Shown in pieces: positions 6,379-17,800 of a stretch of DNA of 44,330 nt; positions within the stretch are counted from its first letter, which is position 1; each line of letters begins with the position of its first letter. The position numbers were made by a program, and so were the translations under genes. Origin of the DNA: Candidatus Limnocylindrus sp. (GTDB lineage: Bacteria; Chloroflexota; Limnocylindria; Limnocylindrales; Limnocylindraceae); NCBI GenBank assembly GCA_040397155.1, contig JBBAWP010000005.1:1-44330 (forward strand), given 5' to 3'. Under the pieces are notes generated by a model. It was not told the DNA's origin. It saw only the letters and a program-made list of their open reading frames with translations, and ran no database searches.

Positions 6379-7605
6379 ATGGTGGACGGCAGCCTCTCCG
6401 CAAAGATCAGCAGCGCCCCTTCTGATCCCATCTTTGGGATTGTGGAGGCCTTCCGCGCCGACCCTCGTCCAGAGAAGATCAACCTTGCCGCTGGTGTCTA
6501 TATGGAGGAGAACGGCGTCACGCCGATCCTCGCCAGCGTTCGAGAGGCCGAGCGCCGTCTCCTTGCCAACTCAACCACCAAGCTTTACAAGCCGATCGGC
6601 GGCGACCCAGCGCTCGTAAAGTTGATGCGCGCACTTATCTTCCGCGAGCCTGGAGCCCCATTCGGCACGCTCCCGCCGATCGCGACCAGCGGACGCGTGG
6701 AGGTGCTTCACACACCAGGCGGAACCGGAGCCGTTCGGCTCGCCGTGGAGTTGGTGGCACGCTTGCGACCAGCGGCTCAGATTTGGGTGAGCGATCCAAC
6801 CTGGCCGAATCATCCACAGATTGCCGACGCGGTTGGCGTGCGCCACCGATCACATCCATGGACCACCGCCAACGTTCGCGAGCTTGATATGGGAGCGCTC
6901 CTCGATGCAATCGCGGCGGCGGCACCTGGCGACGCCTTCATCTTCCATGGCGCCTGCCACAATCCAACTGGCATTGATCCAACCGCTGCACAGTGGGGTG
7001 AGATTGCGAACGCCGTTGCAGCGCGCGGCGTGCTCCCCATCCTTGACTTTGCCTACCAGGGACTCGGCGACGGACTCATTGAAGATGCCGCCTCACTTCG
7101 TGCCTTCCTCGCCACAGGCTGTGAGGTCCTTGTTGCTGCGAGCGCGAGTAAGAACTTCGCTCTCTATGACGAACGAGTCGGCGCACTCGCCATTGTTGCG
7201 GCGGATCCAGCCGCCGCCGCTGCCATCCTCACGCATGCGAAAGTTGCAATTCGCGCCGCCTGGTCAAATCCACCTGGACACGGGGGGGAGATCGTTGCGG
7301 AGATCCTTGGTGACGACGCACTGCGCGCGCAATGGGAGGGTGAAGTCACCGCAATGCGTGAGCGCATCAATGGGAATCGGCGCGCCTTTGTGGACGCGCT
7401 CGCACAGGCTGGCGCAGGCGACTTCTCACACCTCCTCAGCGGGCGCGGCATGTTCTCACTGCTCGGACTCAGCGATGCGCAGCTTGCGCAACTTCGCGAT
7501 GAGCAGGCGATCTATCTCGTGGCGCGCGGCCGCATCAACTTTGCTGGCCTCTCCGCCGTGAAGATTCCAATCGTGGCAAAGGCGGTCGCAGCGCTGCTGC
7601 GCTGA
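6379..7605 (+). CDS. aspC: Aspartate/aromatic amino acid aminotransferase (AspC/TyrB, subfamily I-alpha)
   Basis: DPIFG, KINLAAGVY, TPGGTGA, SDPTWPNH, HGACHNPTGIDP, DFAYQG, SASKNFALYDERVG (PLP Lys), GRIN. Confidence 0.92.
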   Translation: MVDGSLSAKISSAPSDPIFGIVEAFRADPRPEKINLAAGVYMEENGVTPILASVREAERRLLANSTTKLYKPIGGDPALVKLMRALIFREPGAPFGTLPPIATSGRVEVLHTPGGTGAVRLAVELVARLRPAAQIWVSDPTWPNHPQIADAVGVRHRSHPWTTANVRELDMGALLDAIAAAAPGDAFIFHGACHNPTGIDPTAAQWGEIANAVAARGVLPILDFAYQGLGDGLIEDAASLRAFLATGCEVLVAASASKNFALYDERVGALAIVAADPAAAAAILTHAKVAIRAAWSNPPGHGGEIVAEILGDDALRAQWEGEVTAMRERINGNRRAFVDALAQAGAGDFSHLLSGRGMFSLLGLSDAQLAQLRDEQAIYLVARGRINFAGLSAVKIPIVAKAVAALLR

Positions 7606-7618
7606 CGGTGGTGCAGTC

Positions 7619-8515
7619 GTGAAGCTGATTGCGCCACGACTCGTCCCTCGCGTGTGGGGCGGCACTCGGCTCGCAGGACTCTTCCCGGACGCAGCGCCAC
7701 AGGAGCCGGCACAGGTGCGCCTGGCACAGGTGCGAATTGGAGAAGCGTGGTTCGGCGAGATTGGTGACCGACGCCCACTCGTGAAGCTGCTTGACGTCCA
7801 TGATCGACTCTCTGTTCAAGTACATCCGAGTGACGCACTTGCTGCAGAGCTGCACGGCGCGGGCTCGCTCGGCAAACATGAAGCCTGGATCATCCTTGAA
7901 GCGGCGCCCAACGCACACTTACTCCTCGGGCGAGACCCGAACGTGGAGCCTTTCCGTGTTGATGCGGCGCTTGAGAATGGCGAAGACGTGGCGCCGCTCC
8001 TGGCGCGCGTGGCGGTGTCTCCCGGAGACGTCCTTGATGTTCCGCCAGGAACCCTTCATGCACTGATGCCTGGGCTCTTGGTCTGGGAGGTACAGCAGCC
8101 CTCTGACCTCACCTATCGCGTCAGCGACTGGGGGCGAAACAGCAGCGAGAGACCCTTGCATCACGCCGAAGCTCGCCGCGCCACTCACTCCGATGCGGTG
8201 GCGCAACGGATCTCAACGATTGATTGGCTCTCTCCTGGACACCATCGCATCTTGGCCGGGCCTGAATTCCAGATTGCTGCGGTGATTGGACCGTGGAGCG
8301 GCGACCTTGCAACGCCGCTCGGTGCTACCGCAACCCTTGTCACGCAAGTCCCAACCTCCGCCCAATTTGCGGGCGGCAGTGTGGCTACGGTTGGCGGAGT
8401 AAGCATGAGCGCGCTTCAGAGCATCAGCGCCCCTGTCGGCATCCACGCAATCTCGCTCCCATCTGGCGCCGCACTCCTGATCGCAGAGCCTGGGGTGCCA
8501 CGCGCGCAGGAGTAA
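7619..8515 (+). CDS. manA: Class I mannose-6-phosphate isomerase (cupin), compact form
   Basis: RVWGGTRL, IGEAW, LVKLLD...LSVQVHP, GKHEAW, PPGTLHA, EVQQPSDLTYR..DWGR, RPLH. Confidence 0.8.
   Translation: MKLIAPRLVPRVWGGTRLAGLFPDAAPQEPAQVRLAQVRIGEAWFGEIGDRRPLVKLLDVHDRLSVQVHPSDALAAELHGAGSLGKHEAWIILEAAPNAHLLLGRDPNVEPFRVDAALENGEDVAPLLARVAVSPGDVLDVPPGTLHALMPGLLVWEVQQPSDLTYRVSDWGRNSSERPLHHAEARRATHSDAVAQRISTIDWLSPGHHRILAGPEFQIAAVIGPWSGDLATPLGATATLVTQVPTSAQFAGGSVATVGGVSMSALQSISAPVGIHAISLPSGAALLIAEPGVPRAQE
7696..7734 (+). repeat. Short in-frame tandem duplication in manA (PQEP-AQVRL-AQVR)
   Basis: GGCACAGGTGCG at 7708-7719 and 7723-7734, with a degenerate copy GCCACAGGAGCC at 7696-7707. Confidence 0.7.
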
Positions 8516-8587
8516 GGCACGCCCCTAGATTTGATTGCGTTTTCTAAACATTCGGGGTTTTCCGCACGAATTCGGTCGTTTTGCAGG

Positions 8588-8624
8588 AAAAAAAGTTGCG
8601 CATGCGCGACGCCTCGTTCATGAT
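8588..8624 (+). promoter_or_regulatory. Putative sigma70 promoter of the liv operon with A-tract UP element
   Basis: A7 (8588-8594), TTGCGC (8596-8601), 17-nt spacer, CATGAT (8619-8624); AT-rich upstream DNA; palindrome GCGCATGCGC overlaps the -35. Confidence 0.55.
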
Positions 8625-8631
8625 GTGCTTC

Positions 8632-8734
8632 CTCGACTGTATCGGGCGCAGCCGCACCAACGTCATGGCGAAAGCCGCAGCGTGGTGATCGCATAGCCCG
8701 AATCAGCCCCGAGCCCGCGTCGGATCCGGCGCGG
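8632..8734 (+). ncRNA. Structured leader RNA upstream of livK (long rod with GAAA tetraloop, SRP-domain-IV-like apex, plus a second hairpin)
   Basis: Nested pairings CTCG/CGAG, CTG/CAG, TCGGGC/GCCCGA, CACCA/TGGTG, GGC-GAAA-GCC; second hairpin CCGCGTCGG/CCGGCGCGG at 8715-8734. Confidence 0.4.
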
Positions 8735-8754
8735 AATAGTAGAAGGAGGACCTC

Positions 8755-9957
8755 ATGAAGGTCTTTAACAAGAAGGGCTTCGCAGCCCTTGCAGCAGTTG
8801 CGCTTCTCGCAGCTGCATGCGGTGGAAGCACGACGGAAGGGAAGACGCTGACGATCGGCATCAGCCTTCCGCTCTCGGGCTCCTCGCTCGCGTCCGCCGG
8901 CCCAGCCCGTGACGGCGCACTTCTCGCAATCAAGGAGACGACGATCGAGGGCTACACGCTCGCGACGAAGATCCTTGACCACGCCGTTGACGGTGTCCAC
9001 AATCCGGCTCAGGCCGCGACGGACGTCACGACCCTTGTTGGCGACGAGACCGTCGTTGCAGTGGTCGGCCCGTTCAACAGCTCTTCGGCAAAGGCACAGA
9101 TTCCAGTTTCGTCCGAAGCTGGTCTCGCACAGTGCTCGCCGTCGAACACCAACCCAGACCTCACCAAGGGTGATGCTGGTGCTGCGCTCCGTGGTGGCCG
9201 CCCAGTCAACTACGTTCGCGTAGCTGCAACTGACGACCTCCAGGGACCAGCCGTTGCCGTGTACGCAAAGTCACGCGGCAAGTCGAATGTGTTCATCGTT
9301 GATTCAACAGACACATACGGCAAGGGTATTGCTGACTCGTTCGCAGCTGAGTTCACCGCCGGCGGCGGAACCGTTCTCGGCCGCGAAGGTGCACCAGCAG
9401 GCACGACCGACTTCACCGCAATCGTGACGGCCGCCAAGGCGCTTTCGCCTGACGCGTTCTTCTACGGTGGCGTGACGGCGGACGGCGCTGGACTCTTCCG
9501 CAAGGCCATCGAGCAGGCAGGACTCGGCGATGTTGAGTTCTACGGCGGCGACGGCATCCAGGACGGTTCAGGCGAAGGTTCATACATTGCAATCGCGGGC
9601 GCAGCTGCTGCGAAGAGCTTCAGCTCCGTTGCTGCAATCGAGAACATCCCTGACAAGGCTGGATTCGCAGCGAAGTACGAGGCTGAGTACGGCGAAGCCC
9701 CAGGTGCATACTCTGCATCCGGCTACGCATGTGCACAGGTCATTCTCGAGGCGATCAAGACAGCCGTTGCGGCTGGCGAAGTCACCCGCGAGAGCGTCCG
9801 CGCAGCCTTGACCGACACCGCAACCGTCTACTCGACGGTCCTCGGTGACGTGTCATTCGACGAGAACGGCGACACCTCCCAGAAGATCATCTCCCTCTAT
9901 GAGGTTGTTGATGGCAACTGGACGTTCGTCGAGCAGATCGACTACGCGAACAAGTAA
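8755..9957 (+). CDS. livK: Branched-chain amino acid ABC transporter substrate-binding lipoprotein
   Basis: Lipobox LAAAC; IGISLPLSG, VVGPFNSS, SPSNTNPDLT, RVAATDDLQG, YGKGIAD, FDENGD; RBS AAGGAGG. Confidence 0.9.
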   Translation: MKVFNKKGFAALAAVALLAAACGGSTTEGKTLTIGISLPLSGSSLASAGPARDGALLAIKETTIEGYTLATKILDHAVDGVHNPAQAATDVTTLVGDETVVAVVGPFNSSSAKAQIPVSSEAGLAQCSPSNTNPDLTKGDAGAALRGGRPVNYVRVAATDDLQGPAVAVYAKSRGKSNVFIVDSTDTYGKGIADSFAAEFTAGGGTVLGREGAPAGTTDFTAIVTAAKALSPDAFFYGGVTADGAGLFRKAIEQAGLGDVEFYGGDGIQDGSGEGSYIAIAGAAAAKSFSSVAAIENIPDKAGFAAKYEAEYGEAPGAYSASGYACAQVILEAIKTAVAAGEVTRESVRAALTDTATVYSTVLGDVSFDENGDTSQKIISLYEVVDGNWTFVEQIDYANK

Positions 9958-9962
9958 TTCGT

Positions 9963-10082
9963 AGCGGGGTCTCCCCGCTCGGATCACGAGATCGTGATGG
10001 AGGGCCCCCTTCGCCCGTAAGGGCGGCGGGGGCCCTCCCACAATCACGAAGGGGCAGGTGGAGACCCGCCCACTTCTTGCCC
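9963..10082 (+). other. Multi-hairpin intergenic RNA structure between livK and livH (mRNA stabiliser/attenuator candidate)
   Basis: 11-bp GGAGGGCCCCC/GGGGGCCCTCC stem with a CGCCC-GTAA-GGGCG cap, plus several alternative flanking stems. Confidence 0.6.
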
Positions 10083-10131
10083 TAGGGGCAGTGGACAGGC
10101 AGAATCAATAGATACCTCGCGCAACCTTGAA

Positions 10132-10140
10132 GGGGGGGGG
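10132..10140 (+). repeat. G9 homopolymer forming the livH ribosome-binding site
   Basis: aGGGGGGGGGctcATG. Confidence 0.8.
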
Positions 10141-10143
10141 CTC

Positions 10144-11153
<1,010 letters not shown>

Positions 11154-11157
<4 letters not shown>

Positions 11158-12263
11158 GCGCCCTCACCGCACGGTTCGCCCCACTCCGCGCGCGGTCAAA
11201 CGCCTACTTCGCGCAACATCGCTCACTCGGTGTCCTAGTTGCCGTGATCACCATTGGCGTGGCGCTTCCACTCATCAGCCGCATCCCGCCGTTTGGCGAC
11301 CTGCAGTCCATGAACGCATGGGTGAACGCGTTCACGATTGCAGGGATCTACGCGCTCCTTGCCGTTGGGTTGAACGTGGTGATCGGCTTCGCTGGACTGC
11401 TCGACCTTGGATATGCCGCATTCTTTGCGCTCGGTGGGTACACCTATGCGATCGTGGCGTCACCTTTCTTCGATATCCACCTCCCCTTCTGGCCAATGCT
11501 CATTGTTGGCGCACTCATTGGTGCCATGTTCGGGATCTTCCTTGGTGCACCTACCCTGCGCCTTCGAGGTGACTATCTTGCGATCGTGACCCTCGGGTTC
11601 GGTGAGATTGTCCCGATCGTTCTTCTCAACGCCGACCCGTTCACTGGGGGTACCAACGGACTCGGCGGCGTCGACAAGCCAGTGATCCCAGGGATCCTTG
11701 AGTTCACGCTCATCAACCCCTGGCCGTTCTACGTGTTGATGATGGTGATGATCGCGCTGGTGATGACCGTAGTCTTCCGCCTTCAAGACAGTCGCATTGG
11801 TCGGGCGTGGGATGCGGTACGCGAAGACGAGCTCGCCGCAGAGTCATCTGGCGTGAACACGGTGATTTCTAAACTGCAGGCCTTCGCTGTTGGTGCGGCG
11901 ATTGCCGGCTTCGTCGGCGTCTTCAATGCCGCCAAGCTTACGATTGTTGCCCCAGATCAGTTTAAGTTTGTGGTCTCCATCAGCGCGGTTGCGGCGGTCG
12001 TTCTTGGCGGCATGGGGAACCCAGTTGGAGTTGCGGTCGGCGCGTTCGTGATCTACCTCGTGCAGAGCATCTTCTTGAAGCAGCTGAACACGCTCGTTGA
12101 CAACTTCAATATTCCGGTTCTTCAGGAGATTGACTTCCTTGAGTTCCAGTACGTGCTCTACGGCATTGTGCTGGTGTTGATGATGCTGAAGCGCCCGCAG
12201 GGAATTTTCCCGGCGAAGCGTCGCATCCGCATCTTCAAGGACACTGTTGGGGGCGCCAAGTGA
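11154..12263 (+). CDS. livM: Branched-chain amino acid ABC transporter permease
   Basis: GLNVVIGFAGLLDLGYAAFF, LRLRGDYLAIVTLGFGEI, SRIGRAW.AVREDE.AA, VVLGGMG, RPQGI. Confidence 0.95.
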
Positions 12264-13288
12264 GCGCGGCAAAAGTGGCGCCAGATTTGGTCCTGAAGGC
12301 GACGGCGATCACTCGTCGATTCGGCGGGCTCGTGGCGGTGAGCAAGGTTGACTTTGAGATCCCACGCGGAATGATCGCTGCCATCATTGGCCCGAATGGC
12401 GCGGGTAAGACCACCTTCTTCAACGTCGTTGCTGGCATCTATGCGCCGACGGAAGGTCACATTGAGATCAATGGGAAGCGCCTCATCTCACCGCCAACCG
12501 GCGCGAGCCGCGAACCCGCACTCCTCCTTGCGCCACTCATCCCGTTCATCGGTCTCGCCTTGTACTTCCTCCTCGTGGTTGGTGGGCTGGCAGGCTTCTA
12601 CGAAGGAGTTCTGTCCGTGGTCCTAGCGCTGCTCGGATTTGTCTCCGTGCTCCTGCTCACCATCGTGCGCCCACTCTGGTACGTGCGCTTCATCAAGCGC
12701 TTCGGAATCACGCGCCCCGCACGACCAAACGACATGGTGGAGGCTGGACTCGCTCGAACCTTCCAGAACATCCGCCTCTACAAGAGCATGACTGTGTTGG
12801 AGAACATCCTGGTCGGTGCCCATGTGCACTTGCGGTCAGGATTTCTCGGCACCATCTTCCAGACGAAGCGCACGCGCGAAGAAGAGGCGAACGTTGAACG
12901 TGAGTCACGAGAACTGCTCGCATTCGTTGGCCTCGCCGGTACGGAGAATGAGATTGCGACGAGCCTCCCGTACGGGAAGCAGCGGTTGCTTGAGATCGCC
13001 CGTGCGCTCGCAGGGAAACCGCAGCTCCTCCTCCTCGACGAGCCTGCGGCAGGGATGAACCCGAAGGAGACAGCGGAGATGACTGCGCTGATCCGCAGGA
13101 TTCGAGACGAGAAAAACATCACGATCTTGCTGATCGAACACGACATGCGCGTCGTCATGGGCATCTCTGACCGCATCACCGTGCTTGATCACGGCGAGAA
13201 GATTGCCGAAGGTCAGCCGGCCGAGATCCGCAGCAATCCGAAGGTGATCGAGGCCTATCTCGGCCGCGGCGCCGCGAGTGGGCACTGA
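12260..13288 (+). CDS. livG: Branched-chain amino acid ABC transporter ATPase with an internal hydrophobic insertion of about 77 aa
   Basis: RFGGLVAV, GPNGAGKTT, ARTFQNIRL, LPYG.QR.LEIARAL, LLLDEPAAG, LIEHDM, VIEAYLG. Confidence 0.93.
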   Translation: MSAAKVAPDLVLKATAITRRFGGLVAVSKVDFEIPRGMIAAIIGPNGAGKTTFFNVVAGIYAPTEGHIEINGKRLISPPTGASREPALLLAPLIPFIGLALYFLLVVGGLAGFYEGVLSVVLALLGFVSVLLLTIVRPLWYVRFIKRFGITRPARPNDMVEAGLARTFQNIRLYKSMTVLENILVGAHVHLRSGFLGTIFQTKRTREEEANVERESRELLAFVGLAGTENEIATSLPYGKQRLLEIARALAGKPQLLLLDEPAAGMNPKETAEMTALIRRIRDEKNITILLIEHDMRVVMGISDRITVLDHGEKIAEGQPAEIRSNPKVIEAYLGRGAASGH

Positions 13289-13300
13289 GAGGGGCGTCAG

Positions 13301-14011
13301 ATGGCACTGCTTGAACTAAAGGACGTCCACACGTACTACGGAGCGGTACATGCGCTGCGCGGCGTCTCGTTGAAAGTTGAAGAGGGCGAGATCGTCACGC
13401 TGATCGGCTCCAACGGTGCAGGGAAGACCACCACCCTACGGACGATCTCTGGCCTCCAGCGCGCACGCTCTGGAAGCATCACGCTGAACGGAAAAAGCAT
13501 TGAGGCAGCTCCAGCGCATGAGATTGTGCGACTCGGGATTGGCCACAGCCCAGAGGGTCGTCGCGTTTTCACGCGAATGTCCGTGCGCGAAAATCTAGAG
13601 ATGGGCGCATTCCTGCGCAAGCCGGGCCCCGAGGTCCAGGCAGACTTCAAAAAGATCTTTGACCTCTTCCCGCGCCTCAAGGAGCGAGAGTTCCAGGCGG
13701 CCGGAACCATGTCTGGCGGCGAACAGCAGATGCTGGCAATTGGACGCGCGCTGATGGGCCAGCCGAAAGTGCTTCTGCTTGATGAGCCGTCCATGGGACT
13801 CGCGCCGATTCTTGTGGAGCAGATCTTCGACATCATCAAGGAGATCAACACGCGCGGAACCGCCGTGCTGCTTGTGGAGCAGAACGCCATGATGGCACTC
13901 GGCATCGCGAACCGCGGTTATATCTTGCAAATCGGCGAAGTCACCCTTGAAGATGACTGCAAGAAGCTTGCGAGCAACCCGAAGGTGAAAGAGGCGTACC
14001 TCGGCGTCTAG
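13301..14011 (+). CDS. livF: Branched-chain amino acid ABC transporter ATPase
   Basis: GSNGAGKTT, PEGRRVF, FPRLKER, MSGGEQQMLAIGRALM, DEPSMGLAP, VEQN, EAYLG. Confidence 0.95.
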   Translation: MALLELKDVHTYYGAVHALRGVSLKVEEGEIVTLIGSNGAGKTTTLRTISGLQRARSGSITLNGKSIEAAPAHEIVRLGIGHSPEGRRVFTRMSVRENLEMGAFLRKPGPEVQADFKKIFDLFPRLKEREFQAAGTMSGGEQQMLAIGRALMGQPKVLLLDEPSMGLAPILVEQIFDIIKEINTRGTAVLLVEQNAMMALGIANRGYILQIGEVTLEDDCKKLASNPKVKEAYLGV

Positions 14012-15312
14012 TCGTTGACGCGGAACACGTCCGCACGCTTCAGTCTCTTGAAGAGCTGACCCCCATCACGGCGCTCAGCCAACACCGACGGCATCTTTCC
14101 CGCGGTGAGGCCGAGCAGGCGTTGATGTGATCGGATTGCGCGCGTCAGCCCCTCAAGGTGATGCTGAGGTTTTGTGCGCTTCTCCCACCAGAGCCCGTCA
14201 ATGACCAGCGCACCGCCCGCTCCGTCAACGCCACCCTTCTCGCGGTGGATTTGGATGCGGCCCACGATTGCGTCACCAGCATGGATCGGCATTGTGTACG
14301 GCCCGTAGGTGCGCCTCTTCTCCGGCGTGTAGATCTCCCAGCGATAGTGAAAGTCGTACAGCTGCTCGAGGCGCGCGCGATCGTGAATCAACGGATCGAG
14401 CGGCGAAAGCAGCGTGACCGCATTCGGATCAGCGGCTGCAGTCCGGCTTCCGGTGGTTGCGCGCGCGGCCGCCTCAAGCGCAAAACGTTCGGCCGCGGGG
14501 AGTCGCCAGACTCCTGGCAGCCCCACGATCTCCACTTCCAAGAGCTCCCCTTGCGCAATGAGTCGTTCCACGAGTTGCTTCCGGGTGAGCGGCCAGTCAC
14601 GCGGAACCCATGCCGCGTTGGCTGAGGTGAGACCCATATCGCGATGTCGCGCCAAGAAGGTGTGCGCAATCTGCTCCTCTTCACTGACGCGTCGCTCCAG
14701 CACATTGCGGGGGAGGAGTCGCTCGGGGAGGTCGAACCAGCGAATGGAGCCTTCGCGTCGGGCAAGGTAGAGCTCGCCAGAGTTTGCGAGCATCTCGAGC
14801 GCCGCGCGATACGCGGGGGTTGGCCCCCATGACCAGTCGACCAGCTTTGACGGACCAAAGTCACTCGCGCTGAGGGCGCCTTCGCTGGTGATGCGCGACA
14901 TGATCGTCTCCGCCCACGGCTTTAGCTTCTTGTAGGTGCCGTCACTCCAGAAGCGCTCACGTCGTCTATCTGCTGGACGGCGGTAGTACGGCAGTTCACT
15001 CGTGGGGATGATCACGAGCACGCCGTTGTACTGCTCAATCAGCGCGCGCTTCGCCGGCACGCTCGCGTAGAGCAGCTCGTCGACCCAGCGCGGCTCAAAG
15101 CCATCAATGCGCGCATGACAGACCAGTTCGTGGCTGCGGCCAGCGAGATCAACAGGATCAAACTGTAGCGAACCGAGTCGCTCAATCAGCGCAAGGACGG
15201 ATCCGCGACTTGCAGGGAGTGAGCGTGGTGGGAGGAGCATGTGTCGCTCGGCGAGAAACCGTCGTGCAGCGGCACGCGTGATCTTCATGGAGGGGGCGTG
15301 GTCACCGCTCAT
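14008..15312 (-). CDS. ycaQ: YcaQ/AlkZ-family (HTH_42) DNA glycosylase, interstrand crosslink repair type
   Basis: Catalytic QxD (LQFDP) with RSH.L..HARI, FDLPER.LP, LLSPLDPLI.DR.R...LYDF.YRWEIYTP..RR.YG.Y. Confidence 0.85.
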   Translation of the reverse strand: MSGDHAPSMKITRAAARRFLAERHMLLPPRSLPASRGSVLALIERLGSLQFDPVDLAGRSHELVCHARIDGFEPRWVDELLYASVPAKRALIEQYNGVLVIIPTSELPYYRRPADRRRERFWSDGTYKKLKPWAETIMSRITSEGALSASDFGPSKLVDWSWGPTPAYRAALEMLANSGELYLARREGSIRWFDLPERLLPRNVLERRVSEEEQIAHTFLARHRDMGLTSANAAWVPRDWPLTRKQLVERLIAQGELLEVEIVGLPGVWRLPAAERFALEAAARATTGSRTAAADPNAVTLLSPLDPLIHDRARLEQLYDFHYRWEIYTPEKRRTYGPYTMPIHAGDAIVGRIQIHREKGGVDGAGGALVIDGLWWEKRTKPQHHLEGLTRAIRSHQRLLGLTAGKMPSVLAERRDGGQLFKRLKRADVFRVND

Positions 15313-15836
15313 GACGGACGTTCGCTCACAGAAACCTCACGCGCATGAGCTGCACGAATGAGTGCTTCGTAGGTGATGGGGAAGACATCAAGGTGGGTGC
15401 CGCAGGCGGCCCAGAGTTCACCCCGCGATGAGAGTCCAGCATCCGCGAGAACAATTGGCGCGGCGTATTCAGGCGCTGGCGTGTGTCCAAACGGAGGGAT
15501 GCCGCCAATGACGAAGCCGGTGAACGCACGAGCCTCATCCGCCGTAGCGCGACGAACCTGTTCTTCTTGCGCAAGATTGAGTGCGCGAGTGAGTGCGGTG
15601 AGATCAACGCGATCTGCACCTGACACCAGGCAGAGCACGCCGCGCGTCTCCGCTCCCCCCTCAATGGAGAAGACGAGACTCTTGACGATCTGCCCAACCT
15701 CAACACCGAGCGCGGCCGCTGCTTGTGCCGCGGTGGCGGTGCTCTCCGCCATGGCTTGAGGGTGCACGTCGACCCCGGCGTCGCGGCCCGCCGCTACCAC
15801 TCGCTCGGTGAATGCACGTCGCTTCGCTAGATCCAT
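15309..15836 (-). CDS. YbaK/EbsC-family aminoacyl-tRNA editing (deacylase) protein
   Basis: TAAQAAAALG...GQIVKSLVF, VSGADRVD, TGFVIGGIPPFGH, WAACG. Confidence 0.9.
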   Translation of the reverse strand: MDLAKRRAFTERVVAAGRDAGVDVHPQAMAESTATAAQAAAALGVEVGQIVKSLVFSIEGGAETRGVLCLVSGADRVDLTALTRALNLAQEEQVRRATADEARAFTGFVIGGIPPFGHTPAPEYAAPIVLADAGLSSRGELWAACGTHLDVFPITYEALIRAAHAREVSVSERPS

Positions 15837-15851
15837 GCGTGCATCCTAGCC

Positions 15852-16811
15852 TCAGTGCGCGGTGCCACCCGCCTTGATGGTGCGACTTCGCGCGGTCACC
15901 ATCGCGGCAACCCCAACGACCACGATGCCACCGCCGAGCACGATCTGCGCGGAGATCGGCTCCGCAAGGATCAGCCCACCCGCGATCACGGCAACGACTG
16001 GGTTGACGTAGGCATAGGTTGAGACGAGTCCGAACGGCGCCACGCGGAGGAGCCAGGTGTAGACGTTGTAGGCGAAGAGGCTCCCCACCGTCGTTAGGTA
16101 GAAGAGCGCAAAGAGCACGTCTGGTCCGATCGTCTCAGTCTGGATCTGCGCCGGCTCACCAAGGAGCAGGGCAACGATCGCGCCACCAACGCTCCCCGCA
16201 AGCATTTGGATCGTCACGGCAACGCGAGCATCTGGCGGGGTCGCTGCACGTCGCTGGCTCCAAATTGACCCGCCACCCCAACTCAACGGACTGATGAGGA
16301 TGCAGGCGAGTCCGAGCGGATCGAGCCCTGCACCATCGGTGCGCGGCGAGATAAGGATTGCCACACCCACGATGCCGATCACGATGCCGAAGAGTGTGAG
16401 CGGCGCAATGCGGTCTTTATAGACAACTCTACCGATCAGGGCGACCCAGATGGGGAGGAGGGCGATGAGGAGCGCGGTGATGCCTGATGGGATGGTCTGC
16501 TCGCCGTACGACGTGATCCCAAGGCCCCCAACGTTTAGTGCGAGGCCAACGATCACCTGGTCGCGAATCTGTGCGCGCGTCAAGCTGCGTAGTGCTGGTC
16601 GCGCCACCACGGCGACGATCGCGAGCATCACCGCACCCGCAAGGGCGAAACGGAGCGCAACCATGGTGAACGGGGGGATGGCGCTCCCTGCCGAAGGGTC
16701 AACAACAACGCGGATCGCGAGGTAGGTAGTCCCCCAAACGATGTAGATGGCGAGCATCCCGAGTGCAATGGCAAGCGGGGAGGCCGAGGTTAGGCGCGCA
16801 CTGGAAGACAT
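15852..16811 (-). CDS. EamA/DMT family transporter (YedA-like)
   Basis: IYIVWGTTYLAIR, PPF..ALRFALAG, IPSG..AL, VSTYAYVNPVVAV..G..IL.E; start placed at MSSSARL, 6 nt after a TATCAT -10. Confidence 0.9.
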   Translation of the reverse strand: MSSSARLTSASPLAIALGMLAIYIVWGTTYLAIRVVVDPSAGSAIPPFTMVALRFALAGAVMLAIVAVVARPALRSLTRAQIRDQVIVGLALNVGGLGITSYGEQTIPSGITALLIALLPIWVALIGRVVYKDRIAPLTLFGIVIGIVGVAILISPRTDGAGLDPLGLACILISPLSWGGGSIWSQRRAATPPDARVAVTIQMLAGSVGGAIVALLLGEPAQIQTETIGPDVLFALFYLTTVGSLFAYNVYTWLLRVAPFGLVSTYAYVNPVVAVIAGGLILAEPISAQIVLGGGIVVVGVAAMVTARSRTIKAGGTAH

Positions 16812-16817
16812 GCGCAG

Positions 16818-16843
16818 ATGATACTCGTTTCCTCGCGTATCCT
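16818..16843. promoter_or_regulatory. Back-to-back -10 elements of a compact bidirectional leaderless promoter
   Basis: TATCAT (minus, 16818-16823) and TATCCT (plus, 16838-16843), each exactly 6 nt from its ATG (16811 and 16850). Confidence 0.65.
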
Positions 16844-16849
16844 TCTGCG

Positions 16850-17800
16850 ATGCGTGGCTCACGACTCCCCTGGATTCTCCTCGTCGCGGTCTCCGCATTT
16901 GGCTACGGATCAGGTCCGCTCTTTGCAAAGTGGATCTATCCCACCGGGTTTGATTGGCTCGACCTACTGGCCTGGCGTCACTTCCTCGCCGCGATCTTCC
17001 TTGGCGTGATCGTGCTTGCACTCCCAGCAGGTCGAGCGGCGCTGCGTTCGTTGTCGCCGCGGCGCGCACTCTCCGCGCTCGCAATCGGCGCGCTCTTCGT
17101 TGCGAACGCCTCAACCTACTTTGCGAGCCTGATCTGGATCGACGCCTCCCTCGCCGGACTGATGACGTATGCGTACCCAGCGATCGTTGCAGTCCTCTCC
17201 ATCTTCTTTGCGCATGCACCATCAGGTTTACGACCCTGGGTGGCACTCGGGATCGCCACCACTGGCGTTGCGCTCGGCGTTGGAGGGATCTCCGCGGGGA
17301 AGGAGCCGGCGCTCATCGGACTCATCCTTGGTGTCGCCTCACCCATCATCTACAGCTGCTACATCATCCTCGCCGCTCGTCTCGGCGGAGAATCAAAGCG
17401 CGGCACAGGATCGAGTCGCGGTGGCGGCATTCCGCCGCTTGCTGCGGTCCCACTGAGCCTCGCTGGCACGGCGCTCGGCGTCTTCGCGCTGCGGCTCCTC
17501 GCCGGACGCGACCTGCTTCCGATGCCGATCCCAAGCGATGCGCTCCTCCCAATCATCGGCGTAGCCACCATCGCTGGAATTGTGCCGATCGGTGCCTTCT
17601 ACGCTGGCGCGCAGCGCCTCGGCGCCGCACGCGCGGCGCTCGTCAGCACCGTGGAGCCGATCTTCACGATCGTTGCCGCAGGGCTCATCTTTGGAGAGAG
17701 CCTCACCCTCATCCAGCTCCTAGGTGGCGCCCTGATCTTGGGGGCCGTCCTCGTCGCCGAGTGGGGGGCGATCCGCCCGAGCGCCCCAGCGCGGAAATAA
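16850..17800 (+). CDS. EamA/DMT family transporter
   Basis: About 10 TM helices; LLAWRH, YAYPAIVA, LGAARAALVSTVEP, FGESLT..QLLGGALIL; start MRGSRLPW. Confidence 0.88.
   Translation: MRGSRLPWILLVAVSAFGYGSGPLFAKWIYPTGFDWLDLLAWRHFLAAIFLGVIVLALPAGRAALRSLSPRRALSALAIGALFVANASTYFASLIWIDASLAGLMTYAYPAIVAVLSIFFAHAPSGLRPWVALGIATTGVALGVGGISAGKEPALIGLILGVASPIIYSCYIILAARLGGESKRGTGSSRGGGIPPLAAVPLSLAGTALGVFALRLLAGRDLLPMPIPSDALLPIIGVATIAGIVPIGAFYAGAQRLGAARAALVSTVEPIFTIVAAGLIFGESLTLIQLLGGALILGAVLVAEWGAIRPSAPARK

Follow-up and report, generated by a model that had tools for sequence, protein, structure and literature searches.

The LivG-type ATPase encoded at positions 12260-13288 (plus strand) of a 44,330-nucleotide stretch of Candidatus Limnocylindrus sp. 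DNA (Chloroflexota, class Limnocylindria; GCA_040397155.1, contig JBBAWP010000005.1, positions 1 to 44,330; hereafter the window) is probably a functional protein anchored in the membrane by a built-in hairpin of two helices, a reading to which we assign a probability of about 0.65 from sequence comparison and structural modelling. ATP-binding cassette (ABC) importers of the textbook kind have soluble ATPases that dock on permeases through a coupling helix only. The original prediction, made from the letters of the DNA, was of a membrane-anchored nucleotide-binding domain (NBD), the hairpin of which might contribute subunit contacts, gate transport or respond to the state of the membrane. The signature of a transmembrane hairpin, its conservation in the lineage and the intact catalytic motifs were all recovered by computation, and together they argue for such an anchored NBD, rather than for decay or a chimera; the crossing of the bilayer and the subunit contacted there, by contrast, are matters of prediction.

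Judging by its motifs, fold, C-terminal motif and operon, the protein is a member of the LivG branch. The open reading frame (ORF) is translated without a stop into 342 residues, with Walker A (GPNGAGKTT, residues 44-52), Q169, the signature PYGxQR (237-242), Walker B (LLLLDE, 256-261) and H294 all present. Each is invariant in the alignment of 94 full-length homologues from which the conservation, charge and hydrophobicity figures below were taken, bearing out the claim that Walker A and B, the signature and the H-loop are intact. The LivG-type C-terminal motif (BCA_ABC_TP_C, PF12399) was matched at residues 313-338, with 50.1 bits against a cut-off of 25.5, and ABC_tran was matched in two stretches. 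LivG (NF008449, a profile of 255 positions) ranked first of 191 NCBIfam families, its 288.2 bits also coming from two stretches split by the insert, and UrtD followed with 191.4 bits. Searches with phmmer against the structures of MJ1267 (PDB 1g6h, 1gaj and 1g9x) gave E-values of 4.6e-34 to 1e-33. An AlphaFold2 model built from the 94-sequence alignment reached a mean predicted local distance difference test (pLDDT) score of 85.8 and a predicted template modelling (pTM) score of 0.81, and Foldseek matched it in the PDB to ordinary soluble NBDs alone, MJ1267, LptB, MlaF and MalK among them. As these matches scored 0.83-0.84 (TM-score) when normalised on the target and 0.63 on the query, no solved chain covers the hairpin. 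The nearest clusters in the ESM Atlas were generic LivG-like ATPases, with no model of this LivG there, and the source names of such proteins are similarly generic: 'ABC transporter ATP-binding protein', 'ATP-binding cassette domain-containing protein' or 'hypothetical protein'. Membership of the family does not by itself identify branched-chain amino acids as the substrate.

This LivG is not an uninterrupted soluble domain of about 255 residues, since its 342 residues leave ABC_tran split and open a 77-residue gap relative to MJ1267 (257 residues). Query residues 11-76 align with chain residues 7-72 of that structure and residues 154/155-335 with 74/75-256, so that residues 77-153 (12488-12718) have no counterpart. 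The site holds one to three residues in ordinary LivG and one in MJ1267, and the spacing from Walker A to the Q-loop is accordingly 122 in the window's LivG against 46 in ordinary LivG. Upstream lies the N-terminal part of the NBD (residues 1-76, 12260-12487), which the model resolves into the first strands, Walker A, the Walker A helix and a beta-hairpin at 65-76. Downstream, the C-terminal part (residues 154-342, 12719-13285) comprises a pre-Q-loop helix, Q169, the helical subdomain, the signature, Walker B, H294 and the LivG C-terminal motif. The C-terminal end of the insert falls 16 residues before Q169. The features from which the insert was originally proposed were all found: GHIEINGKRL at 66-75, the hydrophobic stretches ALLLAPLIPFIGLALYFLLVVGGLAGF at 87-113 and GVLSVVLALLGFVSVLLLTIV at 116-136, the basic aromatic segment RPLWYVRFIKRF at 137-148 and the Q-loop region RPNDMVEAGLARTFQN at 155-170. 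Its size of about 77 extra in-frame residues was also right, and its proposed span of 12485-12715, corresponding to residues 76-152, is shifted by a single residue in the alignment to MJ1267.

Within the insert, the model places a first helix at residues 82-107 (12503-12580), with the invariant E85 and P86 ahead of its hydrophobic part, a short non-helical turn at 108-112 (12581-12595) that is predicted to lie outside, and a second helix at 113-136 (12596-12667). These lead into a basic aromatic neck (137-153, 12668-12718) containing the RPxWY motif, a short helix at 139-146, R147 and G149. The helices contain two uncharged hydrophobic stretches of about 20 residues each, and the 19-residue Kyte-Doolittle mean reaches maxima of 2.54 (centre 98) and 2.84 (centres 126-127). 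Across the homologues, such means reached at least 1.6 in 93 of 94 sequences for the first segment and in all 94 for the second, with medians of 2.33 and 2.74. This is not to be expected by chance: when the best 80 LivG loci were taken from an all-prokaryote sample of one genome per species, only three had an interval between Walker A and the Q-loop in which the 19-residue mean rose above 1.13. Two of these, a Chloroflexi and a Limnocylindrales metagenome-assembled genome (MAG), carry the same insert and the third carries a different transmembrane insert, the planctomycete variant described below; the remaining 77 have no hydrophobic stretch in that interval.

The charges of the insert are distributed as the positive-inside rule expects of a transmembrane hairpin. 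Lysine and arginine are absent from helix 2 in all 94 sequences, and residues 87-107 of helix 1 average 0.07 basic (K+R) and 0.05 acidic (D+E) residues. The N-terminal flank averages 3.46 basic residues and the C-terminal flank (137-155) 4.99, and the loop at 108-117 averages 0.14 basic and 1.24 acidic residues. Two halves of a cytoplasmic NBD demand that both ends of the hairpin be cytoplasmic, and the charge pattern agrees. The modelled helices, of 26 and 24 residues with block pLDDT values of 75-87 across the insert, are long enough to span a bilayer; each would exceed what the bilayer needs by 4-6 residues, enough for a short neck. On these predictions, the insert matches a transmembrane hairpin with cytoplasmic ends in its composition, in the pattern of its charges and in the shape modelled for it.

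The insert also behaves as a conserved part of the gene. Its length is held at 72-78 residues in the 94 homologues, and its conservation is concentrated at the base of the hairpin: E85 and Y141 are invariant, R137, P138 and W140 are conserved in at least 97%, G149 in 93% and R147 in 90%, followed by P92, L131 and L132 at 86-88%. The best 120 full-length matches, of 8000 significant ones, are mostly 332-380 residues long, and RPxWY is carried by 115 of 121 fetched proteins. Pairwise identity averages 0.40 over the insert, as against 0.715 over the core. In helix 2, conservation is periodic at 100 degrees, with a moment of 0.259 against a shuffle mean of 0.133, a value reached by 3.8% of shuffles. 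Between three congeneric genomes with unsaturated dS (0.5-0.7), dN/dS was 0.074-0.091 for the insert, compared with 0.046-0.080 for the remaining part of livG, indicating from these sequences that the insert is under purifying selection, as is the remainder. Hence the proposal that the domain is not decaying holds, with its motifs intact and an insert dN/dS of 0.07-0.09.

An artefact of assembly or annotation, whether a chimeric contig, a frameshifted read-through or a mobile element, has a negligible chance of explaining the insert. The reading frame is uninterrupted, and the same insert was found in 53 other genomes. A 2458-nucleotide contig from another lake-metagenome run covers 12200-13300, differing by 14 substitutions and needing no gap, and no insertions or deletions were listed for the four runs aligned to the locus. 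The stretch was present, with at least half of the sampled words, in 14 DNA runs, possibly including that of the source sample, from seven studies on lakes, fresh water and waste water. An ungapped match to 12200-12885 came from a contig of a metatranscriptome library; as RNA libraries can contain DNA, this demonstrates presence in the library, rather than transcription. GC content is flat across the borders of the insert (0.59-0.62), the flanks rejoin the NBD exactly at adjacent MJ1267 residues, and no repeats, intein motifs or Pfam or NCBIfam matches were found in its 77 residues, which are conserved at the amino-acid level in the way of a protein part. Independent contigs and 53 genomes together refute this explanation, and conservation in the lineage is evident both in the alignment of close relatives and in these contigs, excluding a chimeric assembly. 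Nine read joints could have been taken for an insert-less form of the gene; their shorter sides were 20-28 letters long, with 90% likeness, and started at conserved ABC motifs, and they were read as other ABC genes. Apparent LivM-LivG fusions in relatives (open frames of 505-828 amino acids) were similarly rejected as arginine-rich, out-of-frame read-through in GC-rich DNA.

The distribution of the insert is narrow. A 116-residue query centred on it was searched against 400 other Chloroflexota genomes and matched 22, all in the window's class, with 4/4, 15/23 and 3/16 genomes in three families coded f1, f2 and f3; none of the 357 sampled genomes of other families matched. When an insert-only profile built from 14 sequences was searched against 200 other genomes of Limnocylindria, 53 matched: 7/7 in f1, 36/60 in f2, 9/66 in f3, 1/66 in f4 and 0/1 in f83. 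The f4 match was weak and partial, and its genome, like that of one f3 match, was flagged as unpublished. In a genome of Limnocylindria (G835:C1:247107-247335, minus strand), the profile matched in two same-strand pieces, profile positions 1-57 and 59-77, lying 4 nucleotides apart, which may be a frameshifted or decaying copy of a hairpin livG. All eight genomes of the window's genus, the window's own included, keep the insert at genome sizes of 1.0-1.4 Mb. The window's assembly, 1.06 Mb at 85% completeness, agrees with the reduced genomes of Limnocylindraceae, for which PMC13212565 gives a median of 1.3 Mbp and 63% GC. In that assembly only one PF12399 match was found, making the hairpin protein its only detected LivG; as the only LivG of a reduced genome, it is the one on which its transporter depends.

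Of 8000 candidates scored with the insert-only profile, at least 284 protein clusters reached E<=1e-3; of the 120 clusters listed, all contain ABC_tran and nearly all have 327-377 residues. Close relatives are named Candidatus Limnocylindrus sp., Candidatus Limnocylindrales, bacterium Ellin6529 or Chloroflexi/Chloroflexota, with one partial sequence labelled Actinomycetota. A phmmer search of a 91-residue insert query against 1.84 billion representatives returned 13 matches at E<=1e-3, a number that is no measure of rarity because a hydrophobic segment holds too little information at that database size. The same limit applies to a word-seeded search with residues 76-155 alone, the 34 matches of which were all close relatives. 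Neither Pfam nor NCBIfam holds a family matching the insert, and its hidden Markov model (HMM), run against 2772 ORFs, matched LivG ORFs solely. A derivation of the hairpin from a neighbouring permease was therefore rejected, the HMM having no match to LivH or LivM and an E-value of 0.089 for the next hit after LivG.

A phylogeny of 81 LivG sequences, inferred with IQ-TREE after removal of the insert columns and rooted on LivF, united all 27 sampled carriers in one clade (ultrafast bootstrap 99; SH-aLRT 96; 100% of 200 bootstrap trees; FastTree support 0.957). No insert-less member was seen inside this clade. Five f2 genomes in which the insert had not been matched were searched, of which three had no close LivG and two had an insert-less LivG falling among other Chloroflexota; as these lie outside the carrier clade, they represent paralogous systems and not losses of the hairpin. 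This topology points to a single acquisition of the insert, in the ancestor of one clade of Limnocylindria.

We favour LivG with a membrane hairpin of its own, which could have arisen and acted as follows. An in-frame module of 72-78 residues would have been gained in a loop of two to three residues that connects the beta-hairpin following the Walker A helix to the short pre-Q-loop helix. It would form a pair of membrane-spanning helices with cytoplasmic ends, joined outside by a short acidic turn. The base would consist of conserved, probably interfacial residues, with E85-P at one side and RPxWY, R147 and G149 at the other. Spanning the bilayer, the hairpin would keep LivG at the membrane at all times, alongside the LivH/LivM pair, where it probably adjoins LivM and would add two helices to the translocator. 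In doing so, it may determine which of the two unlike ATPases, LivG and not LivF, sits on which permease. A LivG fixed beside LivM is favoured because the hairpin is found in LivG only and because livM ends inside the livG start codon. PMC3971661 places importer NBDs very close to the membrane and the Q-loop among the major contact sites with membrane domains; together with an insert ending 16 residues before Q169, this bears on the plausibility of an anchoring hairpin.

The operon itself has the five-gene make-up of LivG-type systems, namely two BPD_transp_2 permeases, a LivF-type ATPase and a Peripla_BP_6 protein alongside LivG, encoded as livK-H-M-G-F on one strand and constituting a LIV-type ABC importer operon. 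On the plus strand, it begins with a substrate-binding protein of 400 amino acids (livK-type, 8755-9957; Peripla_BP_6, E 1.8e-41), followed by livH-type (337 amino acids, 10144-11157; BPD_transp_2, E 4.8e-43) and livM-type permeases (369 amino acids, 11154-12263; BPD_transp_2, E 2.5e-50), each with 9 hydrophobic peaks. The livG gene (342 amino acids plus stop) comes next, and a second ATPase gene of livF type (236 amino acids, 13301-14011) completes the set; its product lacks the insert, with ABC_tran matched in a single stretch at residues 19-164 (E 1.2e-32). Overlaps of 4 nucleotides join the livH stop to the livM start and the livM stop to the livG start. The order livK-H-M-G-F was kept in 21/21 related carrier loci examined, and no regulator gene accompanied the operon in these loci. 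A scan of 7500-14500 with Rfam gave no match. In soil relatives (loci L106-L122), the livK ORFs are 412-601 amino acids long and their match to the 400-residue LivK begins 50-160 residues in, reflecting either over-long ORF calls or long N-terminal tethers. Downstream of the operon lie genes for an AlkZ-like DNA glycosylase (14008-15312, minus strand) and a protein with a YbaK-type aminoacyl-tRNA editing domain (15309-15836, minus strand), then two EamA transporter ORFs (15852-17246, minus strand, and 16763-17800, plus strand) that overlap head-to-head by about 480 nucleotides. The first 150 or so residues of the minus-strand EamA ORF are arginine-rich, which suggests an over-long start call.

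Permeases of insert-less systems vary in length. Many insert-less LIV operons of Chloroflexota, and that of one Methanosarcinales MAG, encode a LivM of 559-641 amino acids with 13-16 hydrophobic peaks, some six more than the window's 369-residue LivM; examples lie at L020:4304-5998, L025:4262-6013, L026:4276-5979, L028:2817-4742, L036:4097-5974, L064:4174-5991 and L074:4304-5983. The LivM of carriers is short, at 369-437 amino acids against 545-641 in many insert-less loci of Chloroflexota, which invited the idea that the hairpin replaces helices lost from this subunit. This was rejected, as some insert-less systems have a LivM of 422-448 amino acids and the LivH and LivM of carriers show 7-10 hydrophobic peaks.

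The loop between Walker A and the Q-loop is a hot spot for insertions. Three planctomycete LivGs of 431, 435 and 580 amino acids (L080:5960-7252, plus strand, equivalent to L123; L124:1321-2625, plus strand; L125:283-2022, minus strand) have spacings of 222, 227 and 371. In these proteins, two hydrophobic helices enclose 130-280 hydrophilic residues, and a basic RSRRT.D stretch follows before the Q-loop. This variant, present in 3/301 sampled genomes of its phylum, would place a sizeable domain outside the cell within an ATPase polypeptide; Pfam recognised no domain in the insert, and an AlphaFold2 model from the three sequences had a mean pLDDT of 49.6, too low to use. It was not matched by the Limnocylindria insert HMM and lies outside the hairpin clade, and from these comparisons it looks like an independent event. 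In clostridial LivGs (L013, L014, L015, L019, L024, L030, L050 and other loci of Clostridia type), the same loop contains 24 inserted residues that are rich in lysine and not hydrophobic, with a spacing of 70; the seven found with a first motif filter, to which a looser filter added more, form one clade with support of 0.931. Some Chloroflexota LivGs have 8-10 extra residues there, giving spacings of 54-56. The planctomycete helices bear on the plausibility of the hairpin crossing the bilayer. A speculative and rather unlikely extension is that this loop serves importer ATPases in general as a port, by which modules in the membrane or outside the cytoplasm connect directly to the catalytic core. 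The port would then have been used twice independently, by the hairpin of Limnocylindria and by the planctomycete helix-domain-helix variant, and events within the membrane or on its far side would control ATP hydrolysis directly while bypassing the coupling helices.

An alternative emphasis is that the hairpin is a control element upstream of the Q-loop, with movements of its helices in the bilayer tuning or gating ATP hydrolysis, much as an accessory transmembrane helix modulates some other ABC machines; the driver could be the lipid state, the conformation of LivH and LivM, or another membrane protein. The junction with the core so close to Q169, the neck being the most conserved part of the insert, the single conserved face on helix 2, the restriction of the hairpin to one of two unlike ATPases and the large hydrophilic stretch between the helices of the planctomycete variant would all suit such a role. 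Nevertheless, neck conservation is equally expected of a purely structural joint, the operon is unaccompanied by a regulator gene in the carrier loci, and there is no known partner or signal, leaving control as an unlikely primary function, albeit one that possibly coexists with anchoring. Just as questionable, and if anything a shade more so, is that the helices do not cross the membrane at all, being instead monotopic, in-plane or a re-entrant wedge, or forming a hydrophobic arm buried on LivF or on a second copy of the transporter. Helix 1 could kink at its two or three prolines (P92, 87% conserved, and P95). Yet each helix contains an uncharged stretch of about 20 residues, for which the Kyte-Doolittle means lie at 2.3-2.8 across the 94 sequences, the basic residues are confined to the flanks and the acidic ones to the turn, the modelled lengths span a bilayer, and the charged faces that soluble arms have are missing here.

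It is very improbable that the insert is a tolerated passenger, devoid of function in a permissive surface loop. In favour of this are the clostridial and Chloroflexota insertions at the same place, and helices whose sequences have drifted to 40% mean identity. However, the dN/dS of the insert equals that of the catalytic core, its length is constrained and conservation across the clade is 90% or higher at seven positions. Moreover, it has been kept in all eight genomes of the genus, at sizes of 1.0-1.4 Mb, and no member of the clade was found without it.

Several observations nevertheless weigh against an anchored LivG. All evidence for its topology consists of sequence prediction and one AlphaFold2 model. 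Helix 1 has no periodic conservation, its moment being reached by 36% of shuffles, and helices about 40% identical beside a core at 71.5% could equally belong to an anchor that packs loosely or faces lipid and has no particular partner. The LivH and LivM of carriers lack no helices for the hairpin to replace. At 288.2 bits, the protein misses the NCBIfam LivG equivalog cut-off of 362. Presence in the class is patchy, with no match in 24/60 f2 and 57/66 f3 genomes, and the system is therefore dispensable for many relatives. A complex prediction pairing LivH and LivM alignments with the 80-residue insert alignment gave no answer, at a score of 0.00 against a mark of 0.32, and carries no weight either way.

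If an anchored LivG is nevertheless correct, the middle of a cytoplasmic enzyme would have to be inserted into the membrane co-translationally while the complex is being made. The hairpin would alter how two unlike ATPases find their places, and possibly how ATP use is coupled to transport. Being a module of 77 residues that is open to deletion or exchange, it offers a compact natural test case for the effect of an additional membrane contact on an ABC motor. It is carried by Limnocylindria, a class that is abundant in lakes and soils and whose genomes are reduced to about 1.0-1.4 Mb in the window's genus; the hairpin sits in the only LivG found in the assembly, and hence in a transporter likely to be important for nutrition. 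Present family models score such proteins under the equivalog threshold and give them generic names. Were the loop indeed a general port, integral-membrane ABC ATPases would be a recurrent and overlooked class.

The original prediction did not recognise this architecture among described importers, and the literature gave the same impression: no paper describing a transmembrane insert in LivG or another importer ATPase was found, in a search whose coverage left out subscription journals and TCDB. The closest comparison is with MJ1267 and LivG of the Escherichia coli type, which share the fold, motifs and PF12399, and form an uninterrupted soluble domain of about 255 residues, whereas the hairpin LivG is split by 77 residues between positions corresponding to chain residues 72 and 74. 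The LIV-I/HAAT importers (LivJ/K-LivHMGF; TC 3.A.1.4) have the same five-gene make-up with unlike LivG and LivF ATPases. In the systems described, however, both ATPases are peripheral subunits, in contrast to the predicted membrane anchoring of this LivG. In LptB2FGC (PDB 6mjp, which was among the NBD matches), a transmembrane helix of LptC also stands beside the permease pair, although LptC is a separate protein with no sequence relation to the hairpin. This helix affects ATPase coupling, and might be a model for how the hairpin acts. An ATPase polypeptide with a transmembrane segment of its own is found in the teichoic-acid exporter TagGH of Bacillus subtilis, where, according to PMC11466899, a single C-terminal helix leads to an extracellular domain. 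As portrayed there, the TagGH helix is terminal and belongs to an exporter, whereas the hairpin lies inside the NBD of an importer. The planctomycete variant shares with the hairpin LivG the insertion site, the hydrophobic helices flanking the insert and the basic stretch, and differs from it in the 130-280 hydrophilic residues held between the helices.

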